From: Chloroflexota bacterium
GTDB lineage: Bacteria; Chloroflexota; Limnocylindria; Limnocylindrales; CSP1-4
Length of the DNA stretch: 64,000 bases
Assembly (NCBI GenBank): GCA_016191345.1
Contig: JACPOU010000012.1
Span: 2,528 to 66,527 of the forward strand
Direction: 5' to 3'
Shown piece after piece: positions 19,022 to 35,078 of this stretch (the first letter of the stretch is position 1; every line of letters begins with the position of its first letter). The notes beneath the pieces are model-generated. The model ran no database searches. It was not told the DNA's origin and worked only from the letters and a program-made list of their open reading frames with translations. The translations under genes were made by a program, and so were the position numbers.

Positions 19022-20491
19022 GTGTCGGACGCGTTCGATCGGCTCCAGGAGCGACTCGGACCGGCCCTCGACGCGAACCGCGAGGGCTCGGGCGTCGAGA
19101 ACGTGCTCATCGCGCTGCCGTCGTTCAGCGTCAGTGAGTCGCTGCTGTCGCACTACGGCGATCGGGTGACGTCGCTCGAGCACCGGTATCTCGGATCCAT
19201 GCTCATCTCGAGCCGCATCGAGACCTGCACGATCCTGTACCTCCCGACCCGCGCGCCGGACCCCGAGATCGTCGAGTACTACGTCGCCCTCGTGCCACCG
19301 GACCGGCGGGATGCCGTTCGGGCCCGGACCCGCGTCATCGAGGTCGGGGGCGGCGTGCGGCGATCGGTCGCCGCGCGCCTGGTGGACCGTCCGGATCTGA
19401 TCGAGCGCCTCCGGGCGGAGATCGGCGACCGGCCCGCGCTCATCGAGCCATGGAACGTGACCGAGCACGAGGTGGCCTTCGCGCTCGCCCTCGGGGTGCC
19501 GATCAACGGCACGGCACCCGAGCTCCGGCCGATTGGCTTCAAGAGCGCCGGGCGTCGGCTCTTCACGGATGCCCGTGTCGCGATGCCGTACGGGCTCGAG
19601 GACGTCCGGTCGGTCGACGACGTCGTGGACGCGGTCCTCGCGATCCGCGCCGCCCGACCCGAGGCGCCCGGCGTCGTCATCAAGCACGACGACAGTGGCG
19701 CCGGAGACGGGAACGTCGTCCTCGACCTCGGGCCGATGGATGGCGCCGCGGACCCGGCGGCCTGGGTTCGCGCCCAGGTCGAAGCCCTCCCGCACTGGTA
19801 CCGGGCCGACCTCGCGCTCGGTGGCATCGTCGAGGAGCGGATCACCGGCGTGCGGTTCACGAGCCCCAGCGCCCAGGTCGACATCCGCCCCGGCCGCGAG
19901 GTCGTCGTCCTCGCAACCCACGAGCAGGTCCTCGGCGGTCCGGGGGGGCAGGTGTACCTCGGCTGCCGCTTCCCCGCGGACCCCGCGTACGCGCCGCGCC
20001 TCGCGGAGGACGCGGCGAGGATTGGGGAGCAGCTGGCGATGCGGGGCGCGCTCGGGCGCTTCAGCGTGGATTACGTGGCGGCGGCCGACGACGACGGAGT
20101 CTGGCGGATCTTCGCTCTGGAGGTGAACCTCCGGAAAGGCGGGACGACCCATCCCTACTCCGCGCTGCGGAACCTCGTGCCCGGTCGCTACGACGCGGCC
20201 GCGGGGCGATGGATCGCCCGCGACGGCTCGACTCGGGCCTACAGCGCGACCGACAACCTCGTGGATCCGGCGTGGCTCGGGCTGCCCCAGGGGGCCGTCA
20301 TCGAGGCCGTGCGGGCCGCCGGGCTCCAGTTCGACCCGGGGAATGCCACGGGCGTCGTGCTCCACATGCTGTCCGGGCTCTCGATCGACGGCCGCCTCGG
20401 GGTCACCGCCATTGCCCGGACGCCCGCCGAGGCGGAGGCGATGGCGAACGGGGTCCGGAGCGCGATCGACGGGCTCGCCGCAGCGCGCTGA
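19022..20491 (+). CDS. Peptide ligase PGM1-related ATP-grasp protein
   Basis: GFKSAGRRLF, VIKHDDSGAGDGN, SPSAQ, THEQVLGG..GQVYLGCRFPA, EVNLRKGGTTHP and Y.ATDNL. RBS AGGAGG precedes the GTG at 19022. Confidence 0.82.
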   Translation: MSDAFDRLQERLGPALDANREGSGVENVLIALPSFSVSESLLSHYGDRVTSLEHRYLGSMLISSRIETCTILYLPTRAPDPEIVEYYVALVPPDRRDAVRARTRVIEVGGGVRRSVAARLVDRPDLIERLRAEIGDRPALIEPWNVTEHEVAFALALGVPINGTAPELRPIGFKSAGRRLFTDARVAMPYGLEDVRSVDDVVDAVLAIRAARPEAPGVVIKHDDSGAGDGNVVLDLGPMDGAADPAAWVRAQVEALPHWYRADLALGGIVEERITGVRFTSPSAQVDIRPGREVVVLATHEQVLGGPGGQVYLGCRFPADPAYAPRLAEDAARIGEQLAMRGALGRFSVDYVAAADDDGVWRIFALEVNLRKGGTTHPYSALRNLVPGRYDAAAGRWIARDGSTRAYSATDNLVDPAWLGLPQGAVIEAVRAAGLQFDPGNATGVVLHMLSGLSIDGRLGVTAIARTPAEAEAMANGVRSAIDGLAAAR

Positions 20492-20560
20492 GGGCAGTCA
20501 GGAGTCCGTGCCGGCCGGCAGGGAACCGGCGCCACCGGCCGCGGAGGGTGGCCTCCAGCC

Positions 20561-21118
20561 CTAGACCCGGGTCTGGTACTCGCCCGTCCGGGTGTCAACG
20601 CGGACGATGTCGCCCTCGTTGACGAAGAGCGGCACGGAGACGACGAGCCCCGTCTCGAGCGTCGCGTTCTTGCGGGCGCCCTGGGCCGTGTCGCCGGCGA
20701 AGCCGGGTTCCGTCTCGGTCACCCGGAGGTCCACCGTGACGGGCAGCTCCACCCCGATCGTCTCGCCCTGGTAGGTCGTCCGGTCGAGGATCATCCCGTC
20801 CTTCAGGTACTCGCTGACGTCGACGAGCTGGTCCGCGCGGAGCATGAACTGGTCGTACGTGTCCGTGTCCATGAAGTGGTAGTCGGCGTCGTCGCGGTAG
20901 AGGAACTGGACCGGGCGGCGCTCCATCGAGGCGCGCGGCCACTTCGTGCCGGCCTGGAACGAGCGCTCGACCGTCTGGCCGCGGCGGATGTTCCGGAGCG
21001 TGATCTTCACCTGGGCCGAGCCGCGGCCCATCTTGATGTGGTGGTAGTCGAGGATCTGCCAGAGCTCGCCATCGAGCTCGATGGCCACGCCCTTGCGCAG
21101 CTCGCCGGTGCTGATCAT
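20561..21118 (-). CDS. efp: Translation elongation factor P
   Basis: QFLYRD...FMDTDTYDQ, ETEPGFAGDTA, K.ATLETGLVVSVPLFV and VDTRTGEY. Confidence 0.96.
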   Translation of the reverse strand: MISTGELRKGVAIELDGELWQILDYHHIKMGRGSAQVKITLRNIRRGQTVERSFQAGTKWPRASMERRPVQFLYRDDADYHFMDTDTYDQFMLRADQLVDVSEYLKDGMILDRTTYQGETIGVELPVTVDLRVTETEPGFAGDTAQGARKNATLETGLVVSVPLFVNEGDIVRVDTRTGEYQTRV

Positions 21119-21192
21119 GGGATCGGTGACTCCTGGGCTGGCGTGCCGGGGCAGGCGCGCGCCGGCCGGTTCGATCGGGATGTGGTCGCCGG

Positions 21193-21198
21193 ATTGTA
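21193..21198 (-). promoter_or_regulatory. Putative -10 element (TACAAT) of efp
   Basis: attgta on the plus strand, about 75 nt upstream of the efp start. Confidence 0.45.
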
Positions 21199-21275
21199 GC
21201 CGAGGCGCCGCCGGGCCCTCGCGGCTCGGGGCTGGGGCTGGGCTCGGGGCCAGGGCGGAGCGCGCCGCGCGCGCG

Positions 21276-22517
21276 TCAGCTGCCGACGATCACCGGCGAC
21301 GTCGGGAAGCGCGTCAGGCGGTCAAGGGATCCGGCCGAAGCGTCGATCGCGACGAGGTCCTCGATCCGGACCCCCGTCTCGCCCTCGAGGTAGATGCCGG
21401 GCTCGATCGAGAAGACCGTCGGCGTCGGGAGGGGCGTCGCGGCGGAGTGCCGGCCGAGCCCCGGCAGCTCGTGGACGGCGATGCCGATCCCGTGGCCCAG
21501 GCCATGGCCGAACGCCGGCCAGCGGCCGTCGGCCTCGATGACGCCCCGCGAGATCGCATCGACGTCCGGGCCGCTCGGCAGCGGGGCGCCGTGGCGGGCC
21601 GCGGCCAGGGCATCACGAACCGTCGAGATCGCCGCCTCCTGCGACGCGGCGACGACCTCGTAGACGCCGAGGTCCCGCTCGCCGGGCTCGCCGACGAACA
21701 GCGTCCGCGTCATGTCGCTGCGATAGCCCGCGACCTGCGCCCCGAAGTCGAAGAGCAGCACCTGGCCCGCCTGGATCCGCGCCTCGCCGGGCGAGCCGTG
21801 GGGCAGCGCGGCGTTCGGGCCGGCCAGGCAGGCGACGTCGAAGGCGAGCCGCTCCGCGCCCCCGGTCCGCATCCGCCATTCGAGGTCCAGGGCCAGCTCC
21901 GCCTCGGTGACACCGGGCCGGATCGACGGCAGCAGGGAGGCGAGGGCCCGGTCGGAGACCGCGCAGGCGGCGGCGATCCGCTCGATCTCGGCGGGCTCCT
22001 TGACCTGCCGGTCCGCCTCCACCCAGCCCTCGATCGGCACCAGCTCGACGCCCGGCGCCGCGGCCGCCAGCCGCTCCCAGACGAGGTGCGGGATCGTCGT
22101 CGCCTCGACCGCGACACGCTGCACGCCGGCCTCGGCGACGAGATCCGGCCAGCGGGCGGCCAGGGCGTTGTAGCACTCGAAGACGCGCGATTCCGGCGCA
22201 TCGCGGCGGACGGCGATCGTGTAGCGGCTGTCGGCGAGGACGATCGACGCTGTGCCCGTGATCAGGAACTTGCCGGAATCACCGGCGCTGGTGACCTCGC
22301 GCTCGTCGAAGGGCAGGCCCGTGAGGTAGCGCATGTGCTCCCAGCGGAGGCCGAAGTAGCCGTCGACGCCTGCCTCCTCCATCCGCTGCCGGAGGCGGGC
22401 GAGGCGCGCCGGGCGGGCTGCACGGTCTGCCTCGGTCCACCGCTCGAGGTCGGCCCGGGCTGGCGGGGCCGCGAAGTCCGCCGGGTGCGGCCACGCGGCT
22501 GATTCCGCGCCCGTCAT
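21276..22517 (-). CDS. Xaa-Pro aminopeptidase (M24 family)
   Basis: VKEPAEI, ALPHG, DFGA..GYRSDMTRT, HGLGHGIGIAVHE and IEPGIY...GVRIED. Confidence 0.93.
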   Translation of the reverse strand: MTGAESAAWPHPADFAAPPARADLERWTEADRAARPARLARLRQRMEEAGVDGYFGLRWEHMRYLTGLPFDEREVTSAGDSGKFLITGTASIVLADSRYTIAVRRDAPESRVFECYNALAARWPDLVAEAGVQRVAVEATTIPHLVWERLAAAAPGVELVPIEGWVEADRQVKEPAEIERIAAACAVSDRALASLLPSIRPGVTEAELALDLEWRMRTGGAERLAFDVACLAGPNAALPHGSPGEARIQAGQVLLFDFGAQVAGYRSDMTRTLFVGEPGERDLGVYEVVAASQEAAISTVRDALAAARHGAPLPSGPDVDAISRGVIEADGRWPAFGHGLGHGIGIAVHELPGLGRHSAATPLPTPTVFSIEPGIYLEGETGVRIEDLVAIDASAGSLDRLTRFPTSPVIVGS

Positions 22518-22527
22518 CGTCGATCGA

Positions 22528-23919
22528 TCACTGGTAACCGTACTTGGCCTTGTTCGCGTTGTGCTCGGCCAGGGTCTTCGCGAACGCGTGCGTGCCGCTG
22601 CCGTCCGGGATGGCGAGAAAGTACAGGTAGCCGTCGGCGGTGTCAGGGTTCAGGGCGGCATCGATGGAGGCGACGGACGGCGTGCAGATGGGGCCCGGGA
22701 TCAGGCCCCGGTTCTGGTACGTCTGGTAGCCCCGAAGGTCGTCGGTCACCTGGACGTTGCCGAGTCCGCCCTCCGGGACGCTCCAGAAGAAGTAGGTCAC
22801 CCAGTCGGCGAACGGGAGGTCCCGCAGCTTCATCGTGTCGACCGCGTAGAGGACGGTCGGATCGGCATTGAGGATCGTCTTGGAGCCGCCCTTGCCCTCG
22901 ATGCGGTTCTGGTAGACGCCCGCGATGAGTGCCCGCTCCTCGTCGAGGACGGCCTCGCGCTCGACGATCGAGGCCAGCGACAGGACCTGGTAGAAGGTCA
23001 GGCCGCGGCTCTCCGGAACGGTCATCCGCGCCTCGCCGACCGCCGTGTAGAACTTGTCGAGCATCATCCGGACCAGGGCCTCGGCCGTCGTGACCTCGAA
23101 GGGCCCGCCGTTCGCTCCGGTGACCAGCCGGTACGTCGCCGGGTAGAGGAAGCCCTCGAGGGAGGCGCCCTCGGGCAACCCGGCCGTCGCGAGCCAGGGA
23201 TAGTCGGCGAGGAGCTCCGGGGTGGGCTTCGAGGCGAGGTCGTAGAACGCCTTCGCGTCGACGCCGGACTGGATCGTCTGGAGCTGGGCAGCGATCTGCT
23301 CGAGGCGGATCCCCTCCCGGAAGGTCACGTCCACCGTCTCGACGACGACCCGGCCGTTCACGAGCGCATCGACGACCTGCCCGGGCGTCATGTCCCGGCG
23401 GAGCACGAAGAGACCCGCCTTGAGGTTGGCGGCGAGGTCGTCCTGAATGGCCGTGAAGATGAACGCGCGTTCCGACTTGACGAAGCCGTCCTCCTTGAGG
23501 CGTGGGGCCAGGAGGACGGGCGTATCGCCGGCCTGGACCTCGAACACGGCCTCCGTCGGATCGGAGCCCGCCGGATCGGTGAGCTGGGTGCCGAGCTCCT
23601 CGCCCACCAGCTCCGCCACGAACGGCACCCGCAGCGAGCTCGGGTTGTCCCAGGCCCAGCTCGACACGGCGCCCTTCAGCAGGGGCCGCAGCGCCGTGAG
23701 GAGGGCGATGACCACGACGACGGCAAGGAGCCCCGCGAAGAGGAAGAACTTGAGCAACCCCGGAATGCCACCGCGTCGCTCGCGGACGGGCCGCCGGCCG
23801 GGCGGGGGGCCGCCGCGCCCGTCCGTTCCGCGCCAGGAGGGCATGTCCGCGCCCTCGTAGGCGCCGGGTGCCAGCCGGCGAGCCCGGTCGCGGGGGCGGC
23901 CACTGTCGCGGATGCTCAT
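22528..23919 (-). CDS. mltG: Endolytic transglycosylase MltG
   Basis: Single TM helix, TFREG, LEGFLYPATY, LASIVERE, IAGVYQNR, ADPTVLY, GLIPGPI and YLYF. Confidence 0.93.
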   Translation of the reverse strand: MSIRDSGRPRDRARRLAPGAYEGADMPSWRGTDGRGGPPPGRRPVRERRGGIPGLLKFFLFAGLLAVVVVIALLTALRPLLKGAVSSWAWDNPSSLRVPFVAELVGEELGTQLTDPAGSDPTEAVFEVQAGDTPVLLAPRLKEDGFVKSERAFIFTAIQDDLAANLKAGLFVLRRDMTPGQVVDALVNGRVVVETVDVTFREGIRLEQIAAQLQTIQSGVDAKAFYDLASKPTPELLADYPWLATAGLPEGASLEGFLYPATYRLVTGANGGPFEVTTAEALVRMMLDKFYTAVGEARMTVPESRGLTFYQVLSLASIVEREAVLDEERALIAGVYQNRIEGKGGSKTILNADPTVLYAVDTMKLRDLPFADWVTYFFWSVPEGGLGNVQVTDDLRGYQTYQNRGLIPGPICTPSVASIDAALNPDTADGYLYFLAIPDGSGTHAFAKTLAEHNANKAKYGYQ

Positions 23920-24374
23920 CGGGCGCTCACGTCCCGGGCCTCGAGCTCATCGCGCAGGATGAGCGCAGCAGCTTCGCGATCCACGCGCGAACGATACCGC
24001 TCCCGCTGCGTCGGCGACGGCGGGCCGCCGGATCGGCCGCGGGGCATGGGTCCCAGGGCCTCCTCCGCGCGGTGGCTCGAGAGCCGCTCGTCCCGGAGCC
24101 AGACGGCGACCCCGAGCGCGGCGCTGATCGCCGCGGCCCATTCGCGCGCGGCCGCGGCCATGGCGCCCTCGCTGCCGCGCGCCTCGAGCGGCAGGCCGAC
24201 CACCAGCTCGTCGATCCGCTGCTCTCGGACCACGGCCCCGATCCGGGCCACGTCCTCGGCGAGGGTCGCGCCGCGGCGCACGGTCGCGAACGCATGCGCC
24301 GGATCGCGGCCCGTCTCGGCGATGGCCAGCCCGATCCGCTTCTCCCCGAGATCGATGCCGAGCAGCCGCGTCAC
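23916..24374 (-). CDS. ruvX: RuvX/YqgF pre-16S rRNA nuclease (Holliday-junction resolvase-like)
   Basis: LGIDLGEKRIGLA, VVGLP, DERLSS and VD.EAAALIL. Confidence 0.93.
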   Translation of the reverse strand: MTRLLGIDLGEKRIGLAIAETGRDPAHAFATVRRGATLAEDVARIGAVVREQRIDELVVGLPLEARGSEGAMAAAAREWAAAISAALGVAVWLRDERLSSHRAEEALGPMPRGRSGGPPSPTQRERYRSRVDREAAALILRDELEARDVSAR

Positions 24375-26101
24375 GGAGCCGGGCTCGCGGCTGGTCCCGT
24401 GCCGGGACTCGTTCCCGGCGAGGTTGTTGGCGAGGGTGCGTCACTCCGCGAGGGCTCGCCGCTGGTCCCGGGGCTGGCCTCCGGGGAGGCTGCCTCGATC
24501 GTGAGCGTCGCGCGGTCCTCCCGCGTCGGGATCGCCGTGACCCAGTCCGGCCAGACCGTGATCCGGACCGCGCCGTAGGCGCCGAGAACCGTCCGTGCCT
24601 GGGGCAGCCCGAGGCCCCGGACCTTCGCCAGGAGCTCCGCCGGATCGAGCTCGCGGATCTCCAGGGCCCGGACGGTCACCGGGAAGGTGATGATCGAGCC
24701 CGCGACGATCGGGTCGCCGACCTGGACATTGATCGTCGCCTCGTCGAGGGCAAAGCCGTCATCGACGGCGGCCCGGAGCCGCGCCTCGGCGAGGGTCGAG
24801 ACCGGGCCGGGATCCACGCCGATCACCGTCCCCTCCGCGGACACGCCCAACTCGAACTCGGCGGCCTCCGTGCCGACGAGGGTCGCGGGGTCGATCGTCG
24901 GCGTGGCCGCCCCGAGGGCCTTCGTCGCCGGGAAGAGCGTCGTCCCGTCGGGAACGCCCGTGGCGCCGGCGATCTGCTCGTCGAACGCGGTCGCGAGGCT
25001 CGCGTCGAGGGTTCGAAGCGCGGCGTCGACGTCCGACTGCTGGACCTGGGGCGACTCGGTACGCGAGCCGCCGGTCGTCGGGTCCTGGTTGGAGACCTTC
25101 GTCCGGAGCGGGTTCTCGTTCTCGGGCACGACGACGATCGTGCCGGCCGCGACGTTGCCGGACGGTCCGGGCGCGACGGCCTCCACGCCGACCTTGCGGG
25201 TCGACGGAATGACGACGAATGCCGGCGGATCGCCGGCGATGCCGATCTCGGCCGGTGGCAGCTCCACGTCGGCGAGGGTCCGGAACTGGATCCCGGATTC
25301 CGTCTGCACGATGGCGCCCTGCCTGATCGTGTTCGAGCCGCCGGTGTTCAGGCTCGAGAACGTGACCTCGCCCGTCGCGCCCGTCTCGGTGACCTTCACG
25401 CCGGTCGCCGGGAACGTGTCGGTGGCGGTCACCGTGAACGGGAAGCGGACCGCCGGCACGAGCAGGTTCACGGGGTCCGGGGCCGTCACGCCCGCCTGGG
25501 CGGTCACGTTGAGCTCGATGGGACCCACCTGGTCCGTGGCCGGGACGAGCGTGATCTGGGCGCTCGGGAGGAGGAGGAACGCGGCGGTTCCGGATGTGGC
25601 GAGGACCGCGATGAGGACCAGGACGGCCGCAACGACCGGCCAGCGGCGCCTCGCCGGCGGACGGCCGACCTGCGGCACCGGGCTCCGCTCTGCCGGTTTC
25701 GTGAGGGTCGGGACGGCGGGGACGACGACGGTCGGGCTGTCGTCGGCGGGCCTGCCGGGGCCCGGATCGGCCGCCACGCCGCCGGTGGCCACGGCCGCGC
25801 CACCGGCGCCTGCCCGCGCCGCCGCGGGCTGCGGGCCCGCCTCGAACGCGGCCACGGATTCATGGGTCGGCAGGCCCGCCGACGCGGCGAGCGCCCGCGC
25901 CGACGCATCGTTCGTGATCACGTCGACCTGCTTCCCGTGCGTCGCTGCCTCGCGGGCGAGGAGCCGGAAGTTGATCCGCGACGTCGAGAGCCGCGATCCG
26001 GCCGGCAGCACCAGTCCGATCCGCTCGTCGGTGAGGCTTCGGATCCTGGCCGCCGCCGAGGTGATCTCGTCGTCGATGTCGAGGTAGACGATCGCCGCCA
26101 T
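24371..26101 (-). CDS. Membrane-anchored protein with baseplate J/gp47-like extracellular domain
   Basis: Cytoplasmic N-domain (YLDIDDEITS...), a linker, a TM helix (WPVVAAVLVLIAVLA...), then ATGEVTF...GIQFRT...VEAVAPGPSGNVAAGTI...VSNQDPTTGG, which matches the baseplate-J signature. Confidence 0.75.
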   Translation of the reverse strand: MAAIVYLDIDDEITSAAARIRSLTDERIGLVLPAGSRLSTSRINFRLLAREAATHGKQVDVITNDASARALAASAGLPTHESVAAFEAGPQPAAARAGAGGAAVATGGVAADPGPGRPADDSPTVVVPAVPTLTKPAERSPVPQVGRPPARRRWPVVAAVLVLIAVLATSGTAAFLLLPSAQITLVPATDQVGPIELNVTAQAGVTAPDPVNLLVPAVRFPFTVTATDTFPATGVKVTETGATGEVTFSSLNTGGSNTIRQGAIVQTESGIQFRTLADVELPPAEIGIAGDPPAFVVIPSTRKVGVEAVAPGPSGNVAAGTIVVVPENENPLRTKVSNQDPTTGGSRTESPQVQQSDVDAALRTLDASLATAFDEQIAGATGVPDGTTLFPATKALGAATPTIDPATLVGTEAAEFELGVSAEGTVIGVDPGPVSTLAEARLRAAVDDGFALDEATINVQVGDPIVAGSIITFPVTVRALEIRELDPAELLAKVRGLGLPQARTVLGAYGAVRITVWPDWVTAIPTREDRATLTIEAASPEASPGTSGEPSRSDAPSPTTSPGTSPGTGPAASPAP

Positions 26102-26103
26102 CG

Positions 26104-27369
26104 TCAGATCCGCATCTGGCGGACGACCCGCCGCAGCGCGGCATCGAGCGGGTTGGTGCTCGTCCCGAGCTCGATCGCCTGGAAGGCCAGGCCCATCGGG
26201 GTGACGTCCTGCTGGTCCACGAGGAGCTTCGTCTCGTCGCGGATCGTCTCGACCTGGTCCGGGGCCATGATCGTGACCTCGGGCGGTCGCGAGAAGGGCA
26301 GCCGCTTCGAGAACCGCTCGTCGTCGAGGACCGCCCGGATCTCCGGCAGCCTCGAGCCGCCGCCGCAGATATAGATCCGGCCCGGCAGCAGGTCCCCGGC
26401 CGCGAGCTCCTCCATGACGAGCTCAACGCCGGCCGCCCAGACGGCGACGTCGTCGGCGACGATCTCCCGGACCGCGTCCGCGCGGTCGCCGGCGATGCCC
26501 CGGGCATAGTCGACCTTGAGCGCCTCGGCCCGCGGGAACGGCAGCTCCAGGCGATCGGCAATGGACTTCGTGAAGGCGCGCCCGCCGAGCGCGAACATCC
26601 GGGTCCCCTCGATGCCGCCCTGGCGAACGAGGGCAACGTCCGTCGTGCCGCCGCCGACATCGATGAACAGCGCACCGGCCTGCCTGACCTGGTCGGCGTT
26701 GAGGACCCGCGCCACCGCGTACGGCTCGGCGACGACCCCCACGAGGTCGAGATCGAGGCGCGTGGCGACGGTCTGGAGCGCGCCGAGGTGGACGAGCGGC
26801 GCGAACGCGTCGAAGACCGCGATCTTCACGTGCCGGCCCTGAAAGCCGATCGGGTTCGTGACCGCGTAGCCGTCGATCCAGGCCCCGACGACGGCTGCGT
26901 GGACGAGACGGACGTCGACGTTGGCGAGGCCGGTCTCCCAGGTGATCGAGCGCTCCGCCTCGCGGATCGCCTCGCGCTGGACGCCCTCGATGAGCTTCTG
27001 GAGCTCCGCCTCGGTGATCTGCGCGTCCGGCCGGGGCCGCTCCTGCGAGTGCGCCGTCGTGAAGCCCTTGACGAGCTCGCCGGCGATCCCGATGACGACC
27101 TGCGACGGCCGGAAGCCGGCCATCTCCTCCGCCTCCTGGAGCGCGATCGCGCAGTTGTCCACCACGGCCGAGATGTCGGCGACGGTCCCGGATTGCATGT
27201 GGGACAGGCCCTGTCGCTTCCGCCCGACGCCCCGGACGATGCCCTTGCCCGCCTCGTCGATCTCGAACGCGAGCGCCTTGGCGAACTCGGTCCCGATGTC
27301 GAGCGCGGTGCAGGCGGTCAGCGCCTCGTCATCCTCGCCGCGGGTCCAGATGCGCCGGAGGAAGGTCAT
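26104..27369 (-). CDS. FtsA-like actin-family ATPase
   Basis: ALDIGTE (phosphate 1), AEPYA, IDVGGGTTD (phosphate 2) and ICGGGSRL (adenosine); FtsA-type insertion; no adjacent ftsZ. Confidence 0.85.
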   Translation of the reverse strand: MTFLRRIWTRGEDDEALTACTALDIGTEFAKALAFEIDEAGKGIVRGVGRKRQGLSHMQSGTVADISAVVDNCAIALQEAEEMAGFRPSQVVIGIAGELVKGFTTAHSQERPRPDAQITEAELQKLIEGVQREAIREAERSITWETGLANVDVRLVHAAVVGAWIDGYAVTNPIGFQGRHVKIAVFDAFAPLVHLGALQTVATRLDLDLVGVVAEPYAVARVLNADQVRQAGALFIDVGGGTTDVALVRQGGIEGTRMFALGGRAFTKSIADRLELPFPRAEALKVDYARGIAGDRADAVREIVADDVAVWAAGVELVMEELAAGDLLPGRIYICGGGSRLPEIRAVLDDERFSKRLPFSRPPEVTIMAPDQVETIRDETKLLVDQQDVTPMGLAFQAIELGTSTNPLDAALRRVVRQMRI

Positions 27370-30170
27370 CCGGGGCGGGACCGGGCCGCCGCGCGAGCCG
27401 CGGCCTCGATCACGGCGAGCGCCTCCCCGAGCCCGTCGCGGCGCGTGCCCCTGCCCTGCGCCATCTCCGGCCGTCCGCCACCCCTGCCGTCGATGGCGGG
27501 CATCGCCGCCTTCACGAGCTCGCCGGCGGCCAGGCCGTCGCCGAGCAGGTCGTCCGAGATCGTGACGAAGATCCCGGGCTCGTCCGCATCGAGGCCGAGG
27601 GCGACGATGCCGCTGCCCAGGACTCCGCGGACGTCCTTCGCCACGCCCTTCATCGCCTCCATCGATTCGAACGGCGCGGCCACGATGGCGAGCCGGAACC
27701 CGTTGCCGATCTCGATCGCCGCGGCCGCGATCTCGCCGGGCTTCGGGAGGGCCGTGGCCGCGCCGCCGGCGCGGAGCCTGCGCTTCGCCTCGCGGAGCTC
27801 GTCCTGGAGCGCGGCGACGCGGGCCGGGATGGCCTGGACCGTCTGCGCACCGGTGGCGGCCAACGCGTCGTCGAGGGCGTCGGAGCGGGCGCGGAACCAG
27901 GCATCGGCACCGGCGCCGGTCAGCGCCTCGATCCGCCGCATCCCCGAGCCGATGCTCCGGTCCGAGGTGATCACGAAGCTCCCGACCTGCCCGGAGGCGC
28001 GGCAGTGCGTGCCGCCGCAGAGCTCGAAGCTGTAGTCCTGGACCCGGATCGTGCGGACCGTCTCACCGTACTTCTCGTCGAAGAAGGCGTCCGCGCCGGC
28101 ATCGAGGGCGGCCTGCATGCCCATGAAGGCGATCGTGACCGGACGGTCGTCGCGAACGATCCGGCGGACCTCGTCCTCGATCTCGCGGCGCTCGTCGGCG
28201 GTCAGCGCGCGGTCGAACGGGTAGTCGAAGCGGAGATGGTCCGGGGTCACGAGCGAGCCGGCCTGGCGGGCCCGGTCGCCGACGACGTTCCGGAGCGCCC
28301 GATGCAGCAGGTGCGTGCCGGTGTGGTTGCGCATCGTGTGCGCCCGGCGCTCGGCGTCGACCTCGGCGATGACCCCCTGCCCGACTGCGATCCTGCCACG
28401 CAACGTGCCGCGATGGACGATCAGCCCGCCGACGGGCTTCTGGGTGTCCTCGACCTCGAAGAGCACTTCGCCGCCGAGGCCCCGGATCACGCCTCGATCT
28501 CCGACCTGTCCGCCGCCTTCGGCGTAGAAGGGCGTCGCATTCAGGACGATCTCGGCCGCCGCACCGGGCTCGGTCCGGAGCTCCTCGTCTCCCTTCGCCT
28601 GGAGGTTCTCGTACTCGACATCGTCGCGGAGGACGGCCACGACACTGACCCCGTCCTCGAGGCGGGTCGCCTCATAGCCATAGAAGGCGGTGTCGCCCGA
28701 GCGGCCCTGGATGGACTGGTAGAGCGAGGTCAGCTCGGCATGGCGCGCCAGCTCCGCCTTCTTGCCGGAGCGCGACCGGTCGCGCTGCTCCGCGAGCGCA
28801 GCGTCGAAGCCCTCACGATCCACGCCGACGCCGTACTCGGCCGCCAGCTCGATCGTGAGGTCGATCGGAAAGCCGAACGTGTCGTGGAGCTTGAACGCCA
28901 CCGCGCCCGGAATCCGAGACGCGTCCACGGGCAGATCCTCGGGCCGGAGGCCCACCCGGCGGGCGTTCGAGGTCAGCGGGATGAGCGCGTCCTCGAGGAT
29001 CTCCGTGCCGGCCTCGAGAGTCCGCACGAACTGCGCCTCCTCCCGGATGATCGCCCCGAGGACCTCGTCGCGGCGCTCGAGGAGGTGGGGGTACGCCTCA
29101 CCCATCGTCTCGATGACGACCTTCGCGGTCTCGGCCAGGAACGGCTCACGCCGGCCAAGGAGCCGGCCGTGGCGGACGGCACGGCGGATGATCCGGCGCA
29201 GGACGTAGCCGCGGCCCTCGTTCGACGGCAGGACCCCGTCGGCGACGAGGAATGCCGCCGCCCGGGAATGGTCCGCGATGACCTGGTAGCTGAACCGTTC
29301 GGCCTCGAAGGCCTCCGGGTCGTGGCCGAGGAGCTCGCCGAGGCGCGCGTGGATGGGCGTGAAGAGGTCCGTGTCGTAGTTCGAGGGGACCTGCTGGATG
29401 ACGCTCGCCAGCCGCTCGAGGCCCATGCCCGTGTCCACGCCGGGGGCCGGCAGCGGCGTCAGGCTCCGGTCGGGATGGAGCTCGTACTCCATGAAGACGA
29501 GGTTCCAGACCTCGAGCCAGCGGGGGCACTGTTCCGAGTGGTCCGGGACACAGAAGTCCCCCTCGCTGAACTCGATGCCGCGGTCGTAGTGGATCTCCGA
29601 GCAGGGGCCGCACGGCCCGATGTCGGCCATCCGCCACCAGTTCTTCTCGTCACCGTTCGGGAAGTCGCCCCAGCGCGCGACCCGCTCGGCAGGCAGGCCG
29701 ATCTCGGATCGCCAGACATCGTAGGCGAGGTCGTCCGTGGAGTAGACCGTGGCCGCCAGCCGGTCGCCGGGGATGCCGAGGTCCTTCGTGAGGAAGTCCC
29801 AGGCGTAGTGGATCGCCTCGCGCTTGAAGTAGTCGCCGAAGCTGAAGTTGCCGAGCATCTCGAACAGCGTGTGGTGGCGGGGCGTCCGGCCGACCTCCTC
29901 GAAGTCGTTGTGCTTGCCGGCGACCCGCAGGCAGCGCTGGTAGTCGACCGCCCGGTTGTAGCTCCGCTGCTCCGCGCCGGTCAGGGCGTCCTTGAACTGG
30001 ACCATCCCGGAGTTCGTGAAGAGAAGTGTCTGGTCGCCGCCCGGGACGAGGCTCGCGCTCGGGACGGGGGTGTGGCCGCGCTCGGCGAAGAACTCCACGA
30101 AGCGGCGGCGGATCTCGGCGGCCGGGAGCGGCCGGATCCGGGGATCGGGGGTGAACGACGGGCTCGACAT
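27366..30170 (-). CDS. alaS: Alanine--tRNA ligase
   Basis: LLFTNSGMVQFK, HHTLFEMLGNFSFGDYFK, DTGMGLER, editing motifs HTGTHLLH and ELCGGTH, and GGGRPEMAQG. Start ATG 30170. Confidence 0.97.
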   Translation of the reverse strand: MSSPSFTPDPRIRPLPAAEIRRRFVEFFAERGHTPVPSASLVPGGDQTLLFTNSGMVQFKDALTGAEQRSYNRAVDYQRCLRVAGKHNDFEEVGRTPRHHTLFEMLGNFSFGDYFKREAIHYAWDFLTKDLGIPGDRLAATVYSTDDLAYDVWRSEIGLPAERVARWGDFPNGDEKNWWRMADIGPCGPCSEIHYDRGIEFSEGDFCVPDHSEQCPRWLEVWNLVFMEYELHPDRSLTPLPAPGVDTGMGLERLASVIQQVPSNYDTDLFTPIHARLGELLGHDPEAFEAERFSYQVIADHSRAAAFLVADGVLPSNEGRGYVLRRIIRRAVRHGRLLGRREPFLAETAKVVIETMGEAYPHLLERRDEVLGAIIREEAQFVRTLEAGTEILEDALIPLTSNARRVGLRPEDLPVDASRIPGAVAFKLHDTFGFPIDLTIELAAEYGVGVDREGFDAALAEQRDRSRSGKKAELARHAELTSLYQSIQGRSGDTAFYGYEATRLEDGVSVVAVLRDDVEYENLQAKGDEELRTEPGAAAEIVLNATPFYAEGGGQVGDRGVIRGLGGEVLFEVEDTQKPVGGLIVHRGTLRGRIAVGQGVIAEVDAERRAHTMRNHTGTHLLHRALRNVVGDRARQAGSLVTPDHLRFDYPFDRALTADERREIEDEVRRIVRDDRPVTIAFMGMQAALDAGADAFFDEKYGETVRTIRVQDYSFELCGGTHCRASGQVGSFVITSDRSIGSGMRRIEALTGAGADAWFRARSDALDDALAATGAQTVQAIPARVAALQDELREAKRRLRAGGAATALPKPGEIAAAAIEIGNGFRLAIVAAPFESMEAMKGVAKDVRGVLGSGIVALGLDADEPGIFVTISDDLLGDGLAAGELVKAAMPAIDGRGGGRPEMAQGRGTRRDGLGEALAVIEAAARAAARSRPG

Positions 30171-30219
30171 CCGGCCGCAATGGTAGCCGAGCCCGGCGGC
30201 CCGGCCGCGGGCGGCGCGC

Positions 30220-30456
30220 TCAGACGCCGGGCGTCTCGTCGCTCGCGGGATCGGGGACGAGCTCGTCGAGGCGGTCCGCCGGACTGCCTGCCGACAGCTC
30301 GCGGAGCCGCGCCCGGGCCTTCCGGCGCTCCCAGATCGTGGAGCCGGCGATCGCCGCCCCGACGATCGCGCCGATCGCAAGACCGCGCATGAAGCGCGAG
30401 CCCGACGGCACGAGGTCCGTGATCAGGTCGACGGCGGAGCTGGTACGGGATGTCAT
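30220..30456 (-). CDS. Small protein with YtxH-like glycine-zipper TM segment
   Basis: FMRGLAIGAIVGAAIAG followed by a basic stretch; ATGA overlap with the upstream ORF. Confidence 0.6.
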   Translation of the reverse strand: MTSRTSSAVDLITDLVPSGSRFMRGLAIGAIVGAAIAGSTIWERRKARARLRELSAGSPADRLDELVPDPASDETPGV

Positions 30457-30782
30457 CGGGGCACCTCTGGGCTGGATGGGGCGACGGGGTCGGGCGTGAG
30501 ACGCGCGTCGCGGGGCTCGCGCTGCGCGAGGACCGAGATGAGGGCCACCGAGATGATCCCGACCCAGGCGAGGACGGAGGCGCCGACGAGGTGGAAGTCC
30601 CCGATCCGAAGGGGGTCGACCCCCAGGCGTCCGGCGAGGGCGTCGCCGGCCCAGGCGCCCAGGAACGCGGCGAGGACGAGGATCGGGAGCCGCTGGCCCG
30701 CGCTGCCGCGGACGAGGATGTACACGGAGACGTGGAGGATGCCGACGAGGAACGCGAGGATCGGCGCCGGCCCGAGGCTCAT
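30453..30782 (-). CDS. Small hypothetical membrane protein (about 3 TM helices)
   Basis: [14 protein letters not shown]...[10 protein letters not shown]...[14 protein letters not shown]; ATGA overlap with the mnmA stop. Confidence 0.7.
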
Positions 30783-31912
30783 CCGACCACCACCCGCTCC
30801 CCGGCCGCCGCGCGCTCGCCGACCGGGACGGCCGGCCGCGCGATGCGGCCGCCGCCGAGGCATGCATCCCCGTCGTACAGCACGGCCGCCTGGCCGGGCG
30901 CGATCGCCCAGACCGGCGCGTCCGTCTCGATGAACCAGGCTCCGCCTTCGCGGCGGACCGCCGCCGGGACCGGGGTGCCCCGGTGACGAATCCGGACCGC
31001 CGCACGGAAGGACGAGCGCGCCTCGCGGTCGTCGATGAAGCGGACGTCCTCGAGCTCGATGCGCCGCGTCTCGAGGTCCTCGCGCCGACCCAGCGTGATC
31101 GTGTTCGTGACCGGATCCACGCGCGACACGTAGCGCGGCGCGCCGAGCGCGATCCCGAGGCCCTGGCGCTGGCCGGGCGTGAAGCCGGCCGCTCCGTCGT
31201 GATCCCCGACGCGCGATCCGTCCCCGTCGAGGACCGGACCCCGCTCCCCTGCCCAGCCGGCCCGTTCCCGGAGTGCGCCCCGGACGTCGCCGTCGGGGAT
31301 GAAGCAGATGCCCTGGCTCTCCGGCTTCTCGGCCGTGGCGAGGCCGAGCCGCCGCGCGACGTCGCGGACCTCCGGCTTCGTCAGCTCGCCGAGGGGGAAG
31401 CGCGCGTCGCGGAGCTGGTCCTGCCGGAGGCCGTAGAGGAAGTACGTCTGGTCCTTGTCCTCGTCGCGGGCCCGCAGCATTCGCGCCCGGCCGTCCTCGT
31501 CGACGACGCGGCGCGCATAGTGGCCGGTCGCGACCGCGTCGCAGTCGTAGAGGTGCCGGGCCCGCCCCAGGAGCGCCCCGAACTTGACGGTCGTGTTGCA
31601 GTCGATGCAGGGGCTCGGCGTCCGGCCGTCGAGGTACGCGCCGAGGAATGGCGACAGGACGCCGTCATCGAACTCGCGCTCCAGGTTCATGACGTAGAAC
31701 GGGATGTCGAGCTGGGCCGCGACGCGCCGGGCGTCCTCGGCCGCGTCGAGGGAGCAGCAGCTCTTCTTGAACTCCGAGATCGAGTCCGCCACGTCGTGGA
31801 GCCGCATCCAGACGCCGACGACGTCATAGCCCTGCTCCACGAGGAGCGCCGCCGCGACCGACGAATCCACCCCGCCGGACATCGCGACGAGGACGCGCTC
31901 GCGCGCGCTCAC
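30779..31912 (-). CDS. mnmA: tRNA 2-thiouridylase MnmA
   Basis: [39 protein letters not shown] and APGQAAVLY. Confidence 0.96.
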
Positions 31913-33123
31913 CGCACGGGCGCCGTCGTGCTGCCGGTTGCCGGATACCGGCCCGCCGCCGCGTCCGCGAGTCGGACGGCCGCGGCGCGCGCCAGCGAGA
32001 CGACGCGCGGCACGATCTCGACCGCCTCGTCGATCTCCGCGTCCGTGGTCGCGTGGCCGAACGAGATCCGCAGCGACCCGCGCGACTCCTCCTCCGGATA
32101 GCCCATGGCGGTGAGGACGTGCGACGGCTCGGCCGAGCCGGTCGTGCAGGCCGAGCCGACGGACGCGGCGACACCCTCGAGATCGAGCTTGACGACGATC
32201 GATGCCCCGTCGACGTCGCGGACGATCACGGACGCGAGGCCGGGCAGGCGATCCTTCGGATGGCCCGTCAGCTCCACGCCCTCGGCGCCGGTGAGCGCGG
32301 CGAGGAGCCGGTCGCGGCCGCGCCGGAGCCGGCGCGCGGTGGCGTCCCGCTGCTCGACGGCGAGCTCGTACGCGACGGCCATCCCGACTGCGGCCGCGAC
32401 GTCCTCCGTCCCGGCGCGCCGGAAGCGCTCCTGCGAGCCGCCCTGCTGCTGGCTGAGGATGTGGGTCCCGCCACGCAGGAAGAGCGCGCCGGCTCCCTTG
32501 GGGCCCTCGAACTTGTGGGCGGCGATCGCGAGCAGATCGACGTCCATCGCCTGGACGTCCACCGGCAGGTACGGCGCCGATGCGATCGCGTCCACGGCGA
32601 TGAGGCAGCCCCTGGGCCCCTGGGTCCGGACGCGACGGACGATCTCGGCCAGCGGCTGGATGGTCCCGACCTCGTTGTTCGCATGGCCGATGGCGACGAG
32701 GATCGTGCGGTCCGTCAGGGCGGCCGTGACGGCCTCGGGATCGACCCGCCCGTAGCGGTCCACGGGCAGCTCCACGACCTCGAAGCCGAACTTCTCGAGC
32801 TGCTGGAGGGGGTGCAGGACCGCGTGGTGCTCCACCTTCGTCGTGATGATCCGGTGGCCGCGGGCCTTGCCGGCCCAGGCCGCGCCCTTCAGCGCGAGGT
32901 TGAGGGCCTCGGTGCCGCCGCTCGTGATGACGAGCTCCCGCGCGGTGCAGCCGAGGCGGGCGGCGATCCGCTCGTGCGCGTCATCGAGGGCAGCCCGGGC
33001 CTTGCGGCCCCACGCGTGGGGCGAGCTCGGGTTGCCGAACTGCTCCCCGAGGTACGGGAGCATCGCCTCCCGCGCCTCTGTCCGGAGCGGCGTGGTCGCG
33101 GCGTGGTCGAGGTAGAGGGGCAT
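31909..33123 (-). CDS. iscS: Cysteine desulfurase (IscS/NifS family)
   Basis: [41 protein letters not shown] and LRISFG. Start ATG 33123. Confidence 0.92.
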
Positions 33124-33158
33124 CCCCGCGATTGTAGGCGCCCGGGCGCCGATGCCCG

Positions 33159-35078
33159 TCAGGCCTCCGCGCGGCTCCGGTCGTACTCGCGGCCACGCTC
33201 CCGTTCGCGCTCGTGCTTCGGGAGCAGGCGCTTCCGGAGGCGGATCGAATCCGGGGTCGCCTCGACGAGCTCGTCGCTGGCGATGAACTCGAGGGCGGAT
33301 TCCAGCGTGAGCGGGCGGGGCGGCGTGAGCCGGAGCGCCTCGTCGTGCGAGTGGGTCCGGATGTTCGTGAGCTTCTTCTCCTTGGCCGGGTTGACGTCGA
33401 GGTCGCCCGACCGGGAGTTCTCGCCGACGATCATGCCCTCGTAGACCTCGACCCCGGCGCCGATGAACAGGGCGGCCCGCTCCTGGAGGTTGAAGAGCCC
33501 GTAGGCATTCGAGATGCCTGTCCGGTCGCTGACGAGCACGCCCGACGTCCGGTGCGTGACCTCGCCGGCCCACGGCCCGTAGCCCTCGCCGATCTGGTGG
33601 AGCAACGCTGTGCCCCGGGTCTCGGTGAGGAGCTGGCCGCGATAGCCGATGAGCCCGCGGACCGGCAGGACGAACTCCATCCGGACCCGGCCGTCGGCAT
33701 CGGTCGACATCTGCTCGAGGCGGCCCTTGCGCGCCGCGAGCGCGGTCTGGATCTCGCCGATGAACTCCGGCGGGATGTCGACCGTGATCCGCTCGTACGG
33801 CTCCTGGACCTCGCCATCGACCTCGCGGAGGATGACCTCGGGGCGGGAGGCCGTGAGCTCGTAGCCTTCGCGGCGCATCTGCTCGATGAGGACCGCGAGC
33901 TGGAGCTCGCCGCGGCCGCGGACCTCGAACGTGTCGCCCGATTCCGTCGGATAGACCTCGATCGAGACGTTGCCGAGGATCTCCTTGTCGAGGCGGGCCT
34001 TGATCTGGCGAGACGTGACGTACCTGCCCTCGCGGCCGGCGAGCGGCGACGTGTTCACCCCGAACGTCATCCGGAGGGTCGGCGCGTCGACGTCGAGGCG
34101 CGGCAGCGGGCGCGGGTCGCCGGGTTCCGTCAGGGTGTCGCCGATCGTGACATCCGGCAGGCCGGCGACGGACACGATGTCGCCCGCGGTTGCCTCGCTG
34201 ATGTCGATGCGCTCGATCCCCCGGGCGGTCTGGAGGCTCGTCACCTGGCCCGACAGCGTCACCGTCCGCCCCGGCTCCACCGCGCCGGCCGTGTCGCCGG
34301 CCTCCTCGCGGACGACGACGATCTTCTGGCCGACCCGGACGGCGCCGTTCCGGATCCGCCCGACGGCCATCCGTCCGACGTACTCGTTGGCGCTCAGGTT
34401 CGTCACGAGGAGCTGGAGCGGGTGGCCGGGCACATGGCGTGGCGGCGGCGTCACCTCGACCAGCAGGTCGAGGAGCGGCCGGAGGTCCGTCCCGGGAACC
34501 GCCAGGTCCAGCGTCGCCGTGCCGAGCTTGGCGTTCGTGTAGACGACCGGGAAGTCGATCTGGTCGTCGTCGGCGCCGAGGTTGATGAAGAGCTCGTAGA
34601 CCGCGTCGAGGACCTCGGCCGGGCGGGCGTCGTGGCGGTCGACCTTGTTGAGGGCGACGATCACCGGCAGGCGCTTGGCCATCGCCTTCTGGAGCACGTA
34701 GCGGGTCTGGGGCAGCGGGCCCTCGGCCGCGTCCACGAGGAGCAGCACGGCATCGACCATCAGGAGCGAGCGCTCCACCTCGCCGCCGAAGTCGGCGTGG
34801 CCCGGCGTGTCGACGATGTTCAGGCGGACGCCGTCATGCTCGACCGTCGTCTGCTTGGCGAGGATCGTGATCCCCTTCTCCTTCTCGAGGTCCATCGAAT
34901 CCATGACCCGGTCGGCCACGATCTGGTTGGATCGGAAGGCCCCGGTCTGGCGGAGAAGGGCATCGACGAGGGTCGTCTTGCCGTGGTCGACGTGGGCGAC
35001 GATCGCGACGTTCCGGAGGTCCTCGCGGGGGACCGAACCGTCGGCGGCGGGCATGGCGGACAGGGTCGGCTCGTTCAT
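33159..35078 (-). CDS. typA: Translational GTPase TypA/BipA
   Basis: AHVDHGKTT, GITILAK, DTPGHADFGGEVER, GRGELQL..LIE.MRREG and ELVEATP..IRLRK. Start ATG 35078. Confidence 0.96.
   Translation of the reverse strand: MNEPTLSAMPAADGSVPREDLRNVAIVAHVDHGKTTLVDALLRQTGAFRSNQIVADRVMDSMDLEKEKGITILAKQTTVEHDGVRLNIVDTPGHADFGGEVERSLLMVDAVLLLVDAAEGPLPQTRYVLQKAMAKRLPVIVALNKVDRHDARPAEVLDAVYELFINLGADDDQIDFPVVYTNAKLGTATLDLAVPGTDLRPLLDLLVEVTPPPRHVPGHPLQLLVTNLSANEYVGRMAVGRIRNGAVRVGQKIVVVREEAGDTAGAVEPGRTVTLSGQVTSLQTARGIERIDISEATAGDIVSVAGLPDVTIGDTLTEPGDPRPLPRLDVDAPTLRMTFGVNTSPLAGREGRYVTSRQIKARLDKEILGNVSIEVYPTESGDTFEVRGRGELQLAVLIEQMRREGYELTASRPEVILREVDGEVQEPYERITVDIPPEFIGEIQTALAARKGRLEQMSTDADGRVRMEFVLPVRGLIGYRGQLLTETRGTALLHQIGEGYGPWAGEVTHRTSGVLVSDRTGISNAYGLFNLQERAALFIGAGVEVYEGMIVGENSRSGDLDVNPAKEKKLTNIRTHSHDEALRLTPPRPLTLESALEFIASDELVEATPDSIRLRKRLLPKHERERERGREYDRSRAEA

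Follow-up and report, generated by a model that had tools for sequence, protein, structure and literature searches.

The DNA analysed here (the window) is a stretch of 64,000 nucleotides from contig JACPOU010000012.1 (positions 2,528 to 66,527, forward strand) of the Chloroflexota bacterium assembly GCA_016191345.1, with a G+C content of about 73% across its 64 kb. Its minus strand carries a gene series running from a nifS-like gene through mnmA, alaS, an open reading frame (ORF) for a protein of 421 residues, an ORF for a protein of 576 residues, ruvX, mltG and an Xaa-Pro peptidase gene to efp, and the two ORFs in the middle of this series are the subject of the present analysis. The first (26104..27369, minus strand) encodes an actin-fold ATPase related to FtsA (hereafter FtsA-like), and the second (24371..26101, minus strand) a bitopic protein whose outer part belongs to the baseplate-J family (hereafter J-like). 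The packing of these genes is as tight as a preliminary description, made from the letters of the window, had stated: the end of alaS at 27366 overlaps the ATPase start at 27369, 2 nucleotides ('cg') lie between the ATPase stop codon (after ...MRI) and the ATG of the J-like gene, and further overlaps join the J-like gene to ruvX (24371/24374) and ruvX to mltG (23916/23919). Neither ftsZ nor pilN is found near the module, whose neighbours are alaS, ruvX and mltG.

The FtsA-like protein matches the Pfam family FtsA (PF14450) at 53.6 bits (cut-off 31.8), MreB, PilM, EutA and others being far weaker, and reaches 104.1 bits against the NCBIfam FtsA equivalog TIGR01174, below the cut-off of 175.85. 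The same genome (64 contigs, 91.5% complete, 6.7% contamination) has its canonical ftsA on another contig, at C22:1927-3033, where it scores 400.7 bits against TIGR01174 and lies directly upstream of ftsZ (C22:653-1615). A canonical FtsA at 389-449 bits is likewise present in all five other Chloroflexota genomes tested; a second match to the FtsA model, at 95-115 bits, is found in all four module-bearing genomes and is missing from G258, which lacks the module ATPase. We built a maximum-likelihood tree of 30 rows, all from Chloroflexota (19 FtsA-like, 6 FtsA and 5 MreB sequences, 11 near-identical matches having been left out beforehand), for which the root is a midpoint only. FtsA-like, FtsA and MreB sequences each occupy one side of a branch (support 94/98, 98/95 and 100/100, respectively), and the window ATPase groups apart from the canonical FtsA of the same genomes (19 versus 6 rows, support 94/98). 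Given the canonical ftsA-ftsZ pair on another contig, the score below the equivalog cut-off and the separate tree group, the window ATPase is an extra FtsA-like paralogue: it is neither the only FtsA of its genome nor a member of the canonical group. With two MreB paralogues above the TIGR00904 cut-off (C49:28238-29224 and C12:41423-42394; 486 and 473 bits), the genome has four actin-fold cytoskeletal genes altogether.

The actin motifs named in the preliminary description are all present in the ATPase (DIGTE, AEPYA, DVGGGTTD and CGGGS), with core residues invariant in 30 orthologues; the nucleotide-site residues D24, G26, D237, G239, T243, G336 and G337 are invariant in the same set. Its AlphaFold2 (AF2) model has a predicted local distance difference test score (pLDDT) of 90.3 and a predicted template-modelling score (pTM) of 0.88, and superposes on Vibrio FtsA (7q6f_A) with a Z of 41.1 and a root-mean-square deviation (rmsd) of 2.4, 352 of 382 residues being aligned over model residues 18-402. 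Across all FtsA entries Z ranges from 33 to 41 and the template-modelling score from 0.72 to 0.83, to be compared with Z values of 26-32 for PilM, 26 for EutJ and about 24 for MreB. As the superposition is best on FtsA structures, the FtsA-type insertion read from the sequence is, on the model, a real 1C subdomain in place of 1B. Residues 407-421 (26107..26151, minus strand) form a basic amphipathic helix that is a candidate membrane-targeting sequence: this tail is conserved as LRRV.K.MK[IVL], is helical over residues 407-419 in the AF2 model and has a hydrophobic moment of at least 0.56 in 12 of 16 orthologues, while in 13 of the 16 a fraction of at most 0.11 of shuffles match its moment. 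Of the amphipathic helices proposed for both ends of the protein, the C-terminal one is borne out as regards its basic and amphipathic character in most orthologues.

The J-like protein is also laid out as first described, with a cytoplasmic domain, a Pro/Ala linker, one transmembrane (TM) helix and an outer domain. In the AF2 model (mean pLDDT 87, about 97 in the folded parts), an alpha/beta N-domain (residues 1-93; 25823..26101, minus strand) is followed by a disordered Pro/Ala-rich linker (residues 95-153; 25643..25819, minus strand; pLDDT below 50), the TM helix (residues 156-176; 25574..25636, minus strand), which is seen in the translation as well, and an ectodomain (residues 180-540; 24482..25564, minus strand). 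The Arg cluster ahead of the TM helix fits an N-in topology. The ectodomain is composed, in order, of a beta-sandwich, the J barrel, a long helix and two alpha/beta subdomains. The baseplate-J signature was correctly recognised: Pfam Baseplate_J (PF04865) matches residues 240-351 at 31.7 bits (cut-off 21.1), nothing else appears in Pfam at E <=1, NCBIfam gives no match for the protein, and four distant orthologues score 28-33 bits against the same family. A profile built from 65 J-like homologues has only weak matches in the PDB, to the baseplate proteins gp47 and ORF62 (E 0.045 and 0.16). The top Foldseek matches are the phage and tailocin baseplate wedge proteins of A-1(L), phiCD508, phi812, Mu (gp47), diffocin and AFP, with E values down to 4e-8, and the beta-barrel (residues 235-350; 25052..25399, minus strand) aligns by VIA-align with 8kea_b (Z 14.8, rmsd 2.8, 99 residues) and 9gb2_G (Z 14.7, rmsd 1.9, 92 residues), to which it is 22-29% identical. 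Mu gp47 (9ki1_H) gives a Z of 12.3 (rmsd 2.0, 91 residues), a domain of Streptomyces GlxA (5lxz) reaches Z 13.0-13.6 over 97-105 residues, and TssF yields a Z of 7.9 against the J-like protein (VIA-align). When residues 236-536 are aligned with whole J chains, 139-155 residues are matched at an rmsd of 31-45, that is, as separate rigid bodies.

The N-domain resembles STAS domains in fold, if perhaps only generically, with Z 8.3 (rmsd 3.4, 97 residues aligned) against the STAS domain 4xs5_D and Z 7.0-7.2 against RsbS, values in a range that the tool flags as possibly generic; no STAS-family match appears in sequence searches with the whole protein (Pfam at E <=1, NCBIfam). In the N-domain, E12, T14, R21, S36, R42, N44 and L48 are invariant in the 65 homologues. 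In the same sequences the ectodomain has no invariant Asp, Glu, His, Cys or Ser, most of the positions that do not vary there being Gly, Asn or Ala residues of the J signature. The linker varies in length between orthologues. In two loci of family f24 (L041:8346-11027 and L054:8439-11078), the J-like proteins are 880-893 residues long, with a linker longer by about 270-300 residues; the N-domain and the ectodomain are conserved in these forms.

The J-like family is large, with 3643 representative clusters at E <=1e-3 and 261 at E <=1e-30; the named close matches are nearly all from Chloroflexota and many carry the label Limnocylindrales. We searched an evenly drawn sample of 401 Chloroflexota genomes, a few of them unpublished, for J-like (E <=1e-5) and FtsA-like (E <=1e-40) proteins, and matched them in 173 and 120 genomes, respectively. 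Of 30 families tallied, 18 have the J-like protein and 12 have neither; the ATPase occurs in ten, and all ten have the J-like protein too. Read by hand, the match tables show 48 genomes outside the class of the window in which the FtsA-like and J-like matches lie side by side in the same orientation on a single contig, and two more in which they stand at the ends of different contigs. Twenty phylum-wide loci, hand-picked to span families and deliberately including four with a lone J-like gene and one (L052) with an ATPase under the 1e-40 cut-off, were then examined by tblastn and profile searches. The J-like gene is a closed ORF in 19 of them and is cut by the contig end in the other. FtsA-like lies directly upstream in 16, one of which is very divergent, ruvX and/or mltG directly downstream in 19, and alaS upstream of the module in 14; all five genes stand in order in 10. 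The very divergent case (L052:5386-6651; genome G210, family f54) occupies the usual place with 25% identity by tblastn, scores 142 bits against the family profile and has no Pfam match at E <=0.01. Two ORFs upstream of lone J-like genes were considered as hidden divergent ATPases and rejected: that in L049 is a class-V aminotransferase, and that in L048 has no Pfam match and no FtsA-like profile similarity (probability 0.1). Closer to the window, a contig scan gave 497 relatives, and in the best 80 loci, all class-level relatives of the window, FtsA-like is immediately upstream of the J-like gene in 79, the remaining locus beginning at a contig end; the full order mnmA-alaS-ftsAL-J-ruvX-mltG-pepP-efp is kept in 31 of the 80. 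The FtsA-like/J-like pair is thus vertically conserved within a housekeeping operon of the Chloroflexota, its genes being adjacent across many families of the phylum and mostly placed with alaS on one side and ruvX-mltG on the other.

Regarding the rest of the operon, alaS (alanyl-tRNA synthetase) spans 27366..30380 on the minus strand in the ORF list, in agreement with the place that tblastn gives it in relatives; its true start is probably downstream of the TTG given in that list. Downstream, ruvX (YqgF; 23916..24374, minus strand) matches PF03652 at 98.9 bits and mltG (YceG family; 22528..23919, minus strand) matches PF02618 at 217.5 bits, each overlapping the stop of the gene before it. 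In L044 (G199) and L047 (G002), alaS was not detected upstream of FtsA-like and ruvX and mltG follow as usual, so that the alaS link looks looser than the ruvX-mltG link. In Bacillus, alaS presumably adjoins yrrK and yrrL. In B. subtilis these two genes, yrrK (yqgF/ruvX) and yrrL (yceG/mltG), have neighbouring locus tags, and yrrKLM is grouped with yrzBL, according to PMC3814617. A scan of positions 20000-34000 yielded no promoter-like site and one terminator-like site, inside mltG, which is no better than shuffles; at 73% GC such a scan is uninformative.

Some other observations concern the limits of this distribution. In family f2 (G133, G269, G309 and G357), which is of the same order as the genome of the window, neither J-like nor FtsA-like is found in any of the four genomes and MltG is found in all four; these genomes are small (1.1-1.4 Mb, 91-93% complete), and the module looks to have been lost with genome reduction. 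The preliminary description had also proposed checking the conservation of the neighbourhood across Chloroflexota and Patescibacteria; conservation across Chloroflexota is borne out, and Patescibacteria offer a weak lead only. Two Saccharimonadota clusters of about 542 residues, at 0.90 and 0.89 in the Atlas, are leads only, and the N-domain alone retrieves short Chloroflexota clusters there, all below 0.9. The labels Patescibacteria, Dormibacterota, Eisenbacteria and Sulfomarinibacteraceae appear on sequences 48-51% (J-like), 68%, and 82% (FtsA-like) identical to those of the window; this level of identity suggests that the labels are probably binning or labelling noise. Long joined proteins were considered as Rosetta-stone evidence and set aside. 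In the precomputed Pfam list, two of 15 link FtsA-like to Baseplate_J (P0391 and P0397, both singletons); in P0391 the joined parts are separated by a Pro/Arg/Gly stretch that looks out of frame, and no alignment is obtained for the N-domain. Many of the long proteins (P0388-P0401) are singletons from public assemblies that link FtsA-like to alaS, J-like or ruvX domains, and apart from P0391 and P0397 most of them involve alaS or ruvX; such forms are most likely frameshift or read-through artefacts of gene calling among packed, overlapping genes in high-GC assemblies. Since P0396, unlike the other long forms, is seen on 3 contigs, it may be a real fusion. This protein of 792 residues, labelled Ktedonobacteraceae, begins with a Ser/Thr kinase domain (Pkinase, 175.6 bits, residues 14-258), to which a complete FtsA-like part is fused (97% of the window ATPase covered at 45% identity); this may hint at control of the FtsA paralogue by phosphorylation.

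A physical link between the two proteins is predicted by complex modelling. The FtsA-like alignment was combined with J-like residues 1-95, using our own unpaired alignments, in three runs and three controls; the runs gave ipSAE values of 0.72, 0.73 and 0.73 and the controls 0.00 throughout. In each run 65-71 contacts were formed and the pLDDT of the partner was 84 or higher, and the runs shared 93% or more of their contacts. On the J-like side, the predicted interface (residues 10, 12-15, 17-18, 21, 37, 40-44, 46-47, 50-51, 67 and 70-71) coincides with the motifs DDEIT and SRINFRLL, which hold most of the invariant columns of the 65 homologues and had been picked as the most conserved patterns in the locus scan. 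On the ATPase side, the contacts fall mostly on helices 263-274 and 294-323, which by their position in the modelled fold would belong to subdomain 2B, and also on loops 55-60, 98-99 and 144-148. To our knowledge, the solved complexes of FtsA and PilM involve short peptides rather than a folded domain, and a pass produced from the predictor's memory therefore seems unlikely. In the 14 loci with a standard ATPase (L052 being left out), identity to the window averages 0.42 at the interface and 0.32 in the rest of the N-domain, compared with 0.19 and 0.245 in the four loci without ATPase; this contrast is suggestive, but it is confounded by phylogenetic distance and we do not use it as support. 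From the models, it seems likely that the two proteins form a complex with the N-domain as the docking site.

We consider that the two genes may encode a vertically inherited, housekeeping, two-protein transmembrane module of the Chloroflexota, in which a domesticated baseplate protein forms the outer part, a reading to which we give a probability of about 0.5. The FtsA paralogue, its nucleotide site intact, would probably be held by its basic amphipathic C-terminal helix at the cytoplasmic side of the membrane, where it might polymerise, and would bind the STAS-like cytoplasmic domain of the J-like protein mainly via its 2B subdomain. In this way a cytoplasmic actin-like ATPase would be coupled, through a flexible linker and one TM helix, to an extracytoplasmic domain presumably descended from the baseplate-J wedge protein of a phage or contractile system. 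Because no catalytic-type residue is invariant, the outer domain would most likely have a scaffolding or binding function in the region of the wall. The most likely process would be growth or remodelling of the cell envelope, although for an action in wall or envelope growth as such we would put the odds slightly short of even. That the outer domain forms rings and that the module organises wall synthesis with MltG, as the preliminary description supposed, are conjectures. The boldest form of this idea is a third actin-based envelope machine of the Chloroflexota, besides the divisome and the MreB elongasome, in which membrane-bound filaments or rings of the FtsA paralogue would organise, from across the membrane, an oligomeric extracytoplasmic scaffold of the domesticated baseplate-wedge protein, working with MltG in the termination or remodelling of glycan strands, the module possibly going back to a common ancestor with Patescibacteria; this we regard as improbable.

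Several observations weigh against the module reading or its parts. The ATPase was thought to be a dedicated actin homologue, and the pairing itself is confirmed (16 of 20 loci, all ten families with ATPase), yet the ATPase does not always accompany the J-like protein, which occurs without it in 8 of the 18 families that have J-like matches. In the same way, four of the 20 phylum-wide loci have the J-like gene without ATPase, alaS or another gene abutting it instead; the N-domain is retained there, and may thus serve a different partner or function in those lineages. The complex is a model and not a measurement, and the calibration of its score, a mark reached by 116 of 157 solved complexes and by 2 of 215 mismatched pairs, holds only roughly here since the alignments were our own unpaired ones. 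In the AF2 model there is hardly any linker between the last core helix of the ATPase and its C-terminal helix, which could thus be part of the fold. The other proposed terminal helix has not stood up: the N-terminal segment (residues 2-12; 27334..27366, minus strand) is disordered in the model and, although basic in 16 of 16 orthologues, is clearly amphipathic in only 4 of the 16. As for MltG, it is present in 352 of the 401 genomes, and nine of the 30 families tallied have it while giving no J-like match, so that MltG does not depend on the module; being nearly universal, its co-distribution is uninformative. Adjacency is all that speaks for a specific link to MltG, and membership of an operon that also holds alaS and ruvX, which are not envelope genes, is weak evidence of it.

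The family and fold of the J-like protein would fit the remnant of a prophage tail, a tailocin or a contractile injection system. However, the 91.5%-complete genome has a single Baseplate_J match and no match to GPW_gp25 or Phage_sheath_1 (tube and spike families were not searched), the place between alaS and ruvX is fixed across the phylum, the protein is anchored by a TM helix and carries a cytoplasmic domain in addition, and its N-domain patterns retrieve no relative in IMG/VR. This lone J match without gp25 or sheath, in a fixed housekeeping position and with a membrane anchor, effectively refutes the remnant explanation, which we hold to be extremely improbable. It is also conceivable that the two proteins are simply encoded side by side in a compact housekeeping operon and have no joint function, as the occurrence of the J-like protein without the ATPase, the false passes of complex predictors (the 2 in 215) and the lack of a functional relation among alaS, ruvX and mltG would allow. 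This is quite improbable, for in the loci examined the ATPase was never seen to lack a J-like gene just downstream (16 of 16 phylum-wide loci with ATPase, 79 of 80 at class level) and the predicted interface takes in the best-conserved positions of the N-domain, with controls at 0.00.

Two further explanations accept the module and place it elsewhere. It could be an accessory of the divisome, in which the FtsA paralogue would be septal beside canonical FtsA and the J-like protein an FtsN-like bitopic activator or marker of septal wall synthesis. The closest structures are indeed those of FtsA, including the entry of an FtsA-FtsN complex (7q6i); an actin homologue with a bitopic partner bearing a cytoplasmic binding part matches FtsA-FtsN; and the predicted contact is on 2B, the subdomain that FtsA uses for the FtsZ tail. 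Nevertheless, the genes lie outside the dcw (division and cell wall) cluster, canonical ftsA-ftsZ is located elsewhere, and Pfam recognises neither a SPOR-like nor any other wall-binding family in the ectodomain, so that we think this unlikely, if still worth keeping in mind. Scarcely different in our estimation, and likewise unlikely, is a role in some envelope process that involves neither peptidoglycan nor MltG, for instance the anchoring or patterning of a surface layer, a sheath or exopolysaccharide, or cell-cell contacts, with the J domain as an extracellular adaptor. The presence of the same barrel in the membrane-anchored extracytoplasmic oxidase GlxA of Streptomyces would suit such a role; moreover, with alaS and ruvX as operon neighbours, adjacency is no guarantee of a common function here, and in many families that have MltG the module was not found. 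On the other hand, the conserved neighbourhood contains no glycosyltransferase, S-layer or secretion gene, and mltG is the only envelope gene kept adjacent. A housekeeping transmembrane module of the envelope is the reading that we retain, at the strength given above.

In bacteria, actin homologues that work through bitopic membrane partners organise cell division, elongation and the assembly of pili. Another such pair, spread across a phylum, would if confirmed open a new way into the cell biology of the Chloroflexota, which has been little studied, and would clearly exemplify the recruitment of a phage baseplate protein, with the other tail components absent, to a single-copy housekeeping role. 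Since the predicted interface names specific residues to mutate, the binding idea is directly testable. The preliminary description knew of no functional characterisation of such a pair, and full-text searches of the literature, the supplementary division-gene figure of PMC10608941 excluded, found no description of one. In PMC10608941, TIGR01174 and other models are used to score dcw genes in Dehalococcoidia, and statistics for Limnocylindria are given.

Among known systems, the module is reminiscent of FtsA-FtsN: an ATPase that has the FtsA fold, including the 1C subdomain (Z up to 41.1), and a basic amphipathic C-terminal tail is combined with a bitopic N-in/C-out partner for which a cytoplasmic contact is predicted. 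FtsN, however, binds FtsA through a short peptide on subdomain 1C, whereas the partner in the window would contact mainly 2B, through a folded domain of 93 residues; in addition, the ATPase is a sub-cut-off paralogue that is not beside ftsZ, and the outer domain is of the baseplate-J type rather than SPOR. The likeness to MreB-RodZ lies in the folded cytoplasmic domain of a bitopic protein that would dock on a membrane-bound actin homologue (as in entry 2wus), followed by a linker, one TM helix and an outer domain. Here the actin homologue is of the FtsA type and not an MreB, of which the genome has two real ones, the cytoplasmic domain is STAS-like whereas that of RodZ has a helix-turn-helix fold, and no mreCD, rodA or pbp2 is found in the conserved neighbourhood of the module. 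PilM-PilN shares with it an ATPase of the FtsA/PilM fold (Z 26-32 against PilM) encoded immediately upstream of a bitopic partner. However, PilN binds PilM via a peptide of about 12 residues, in contrast to the folded domain predicted here; the window ATPase scores 24 bits against the PilM model TIGR01175, below the cut-off of 133, no PilM above that cut-off is found in the genome, and no pilO, pilP, pilQ or pilin gene lies near the module.

The outer domain resembles the wedge proteins baseplate J, gp47, T4 gp6 and TssF: PF04865 is matched above its gathering cut-off, its barrel, 22-29% identical to theirs, fits them at an rmsd of 1.9-2.8 A, and what follows the barrel aligns too, as separate bodies. 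It differs from them in being membrane-anchored, in its added cytoplasmic domain, in lacking gp25 or sheath partner genes in the genome and in its vertical inheritance within a housekeeping operon. GlxA of Streptomyces lividans, which acts in glycan deposition, is likewise a membrane-anchored extracytoplasmic protein of a monoderm with the same barrel (Pfam PF21110); it is a copper oxidase with a kelch propeller, whereas the J-like protein lacks a catalytic domain of that sort and has a cytoplasmic domain instead. What is new in the module, compared with all of these, is a whole outer domain of the baseplate-J type, without other tail genes, joined to a folded cytoplasmic adaptor.

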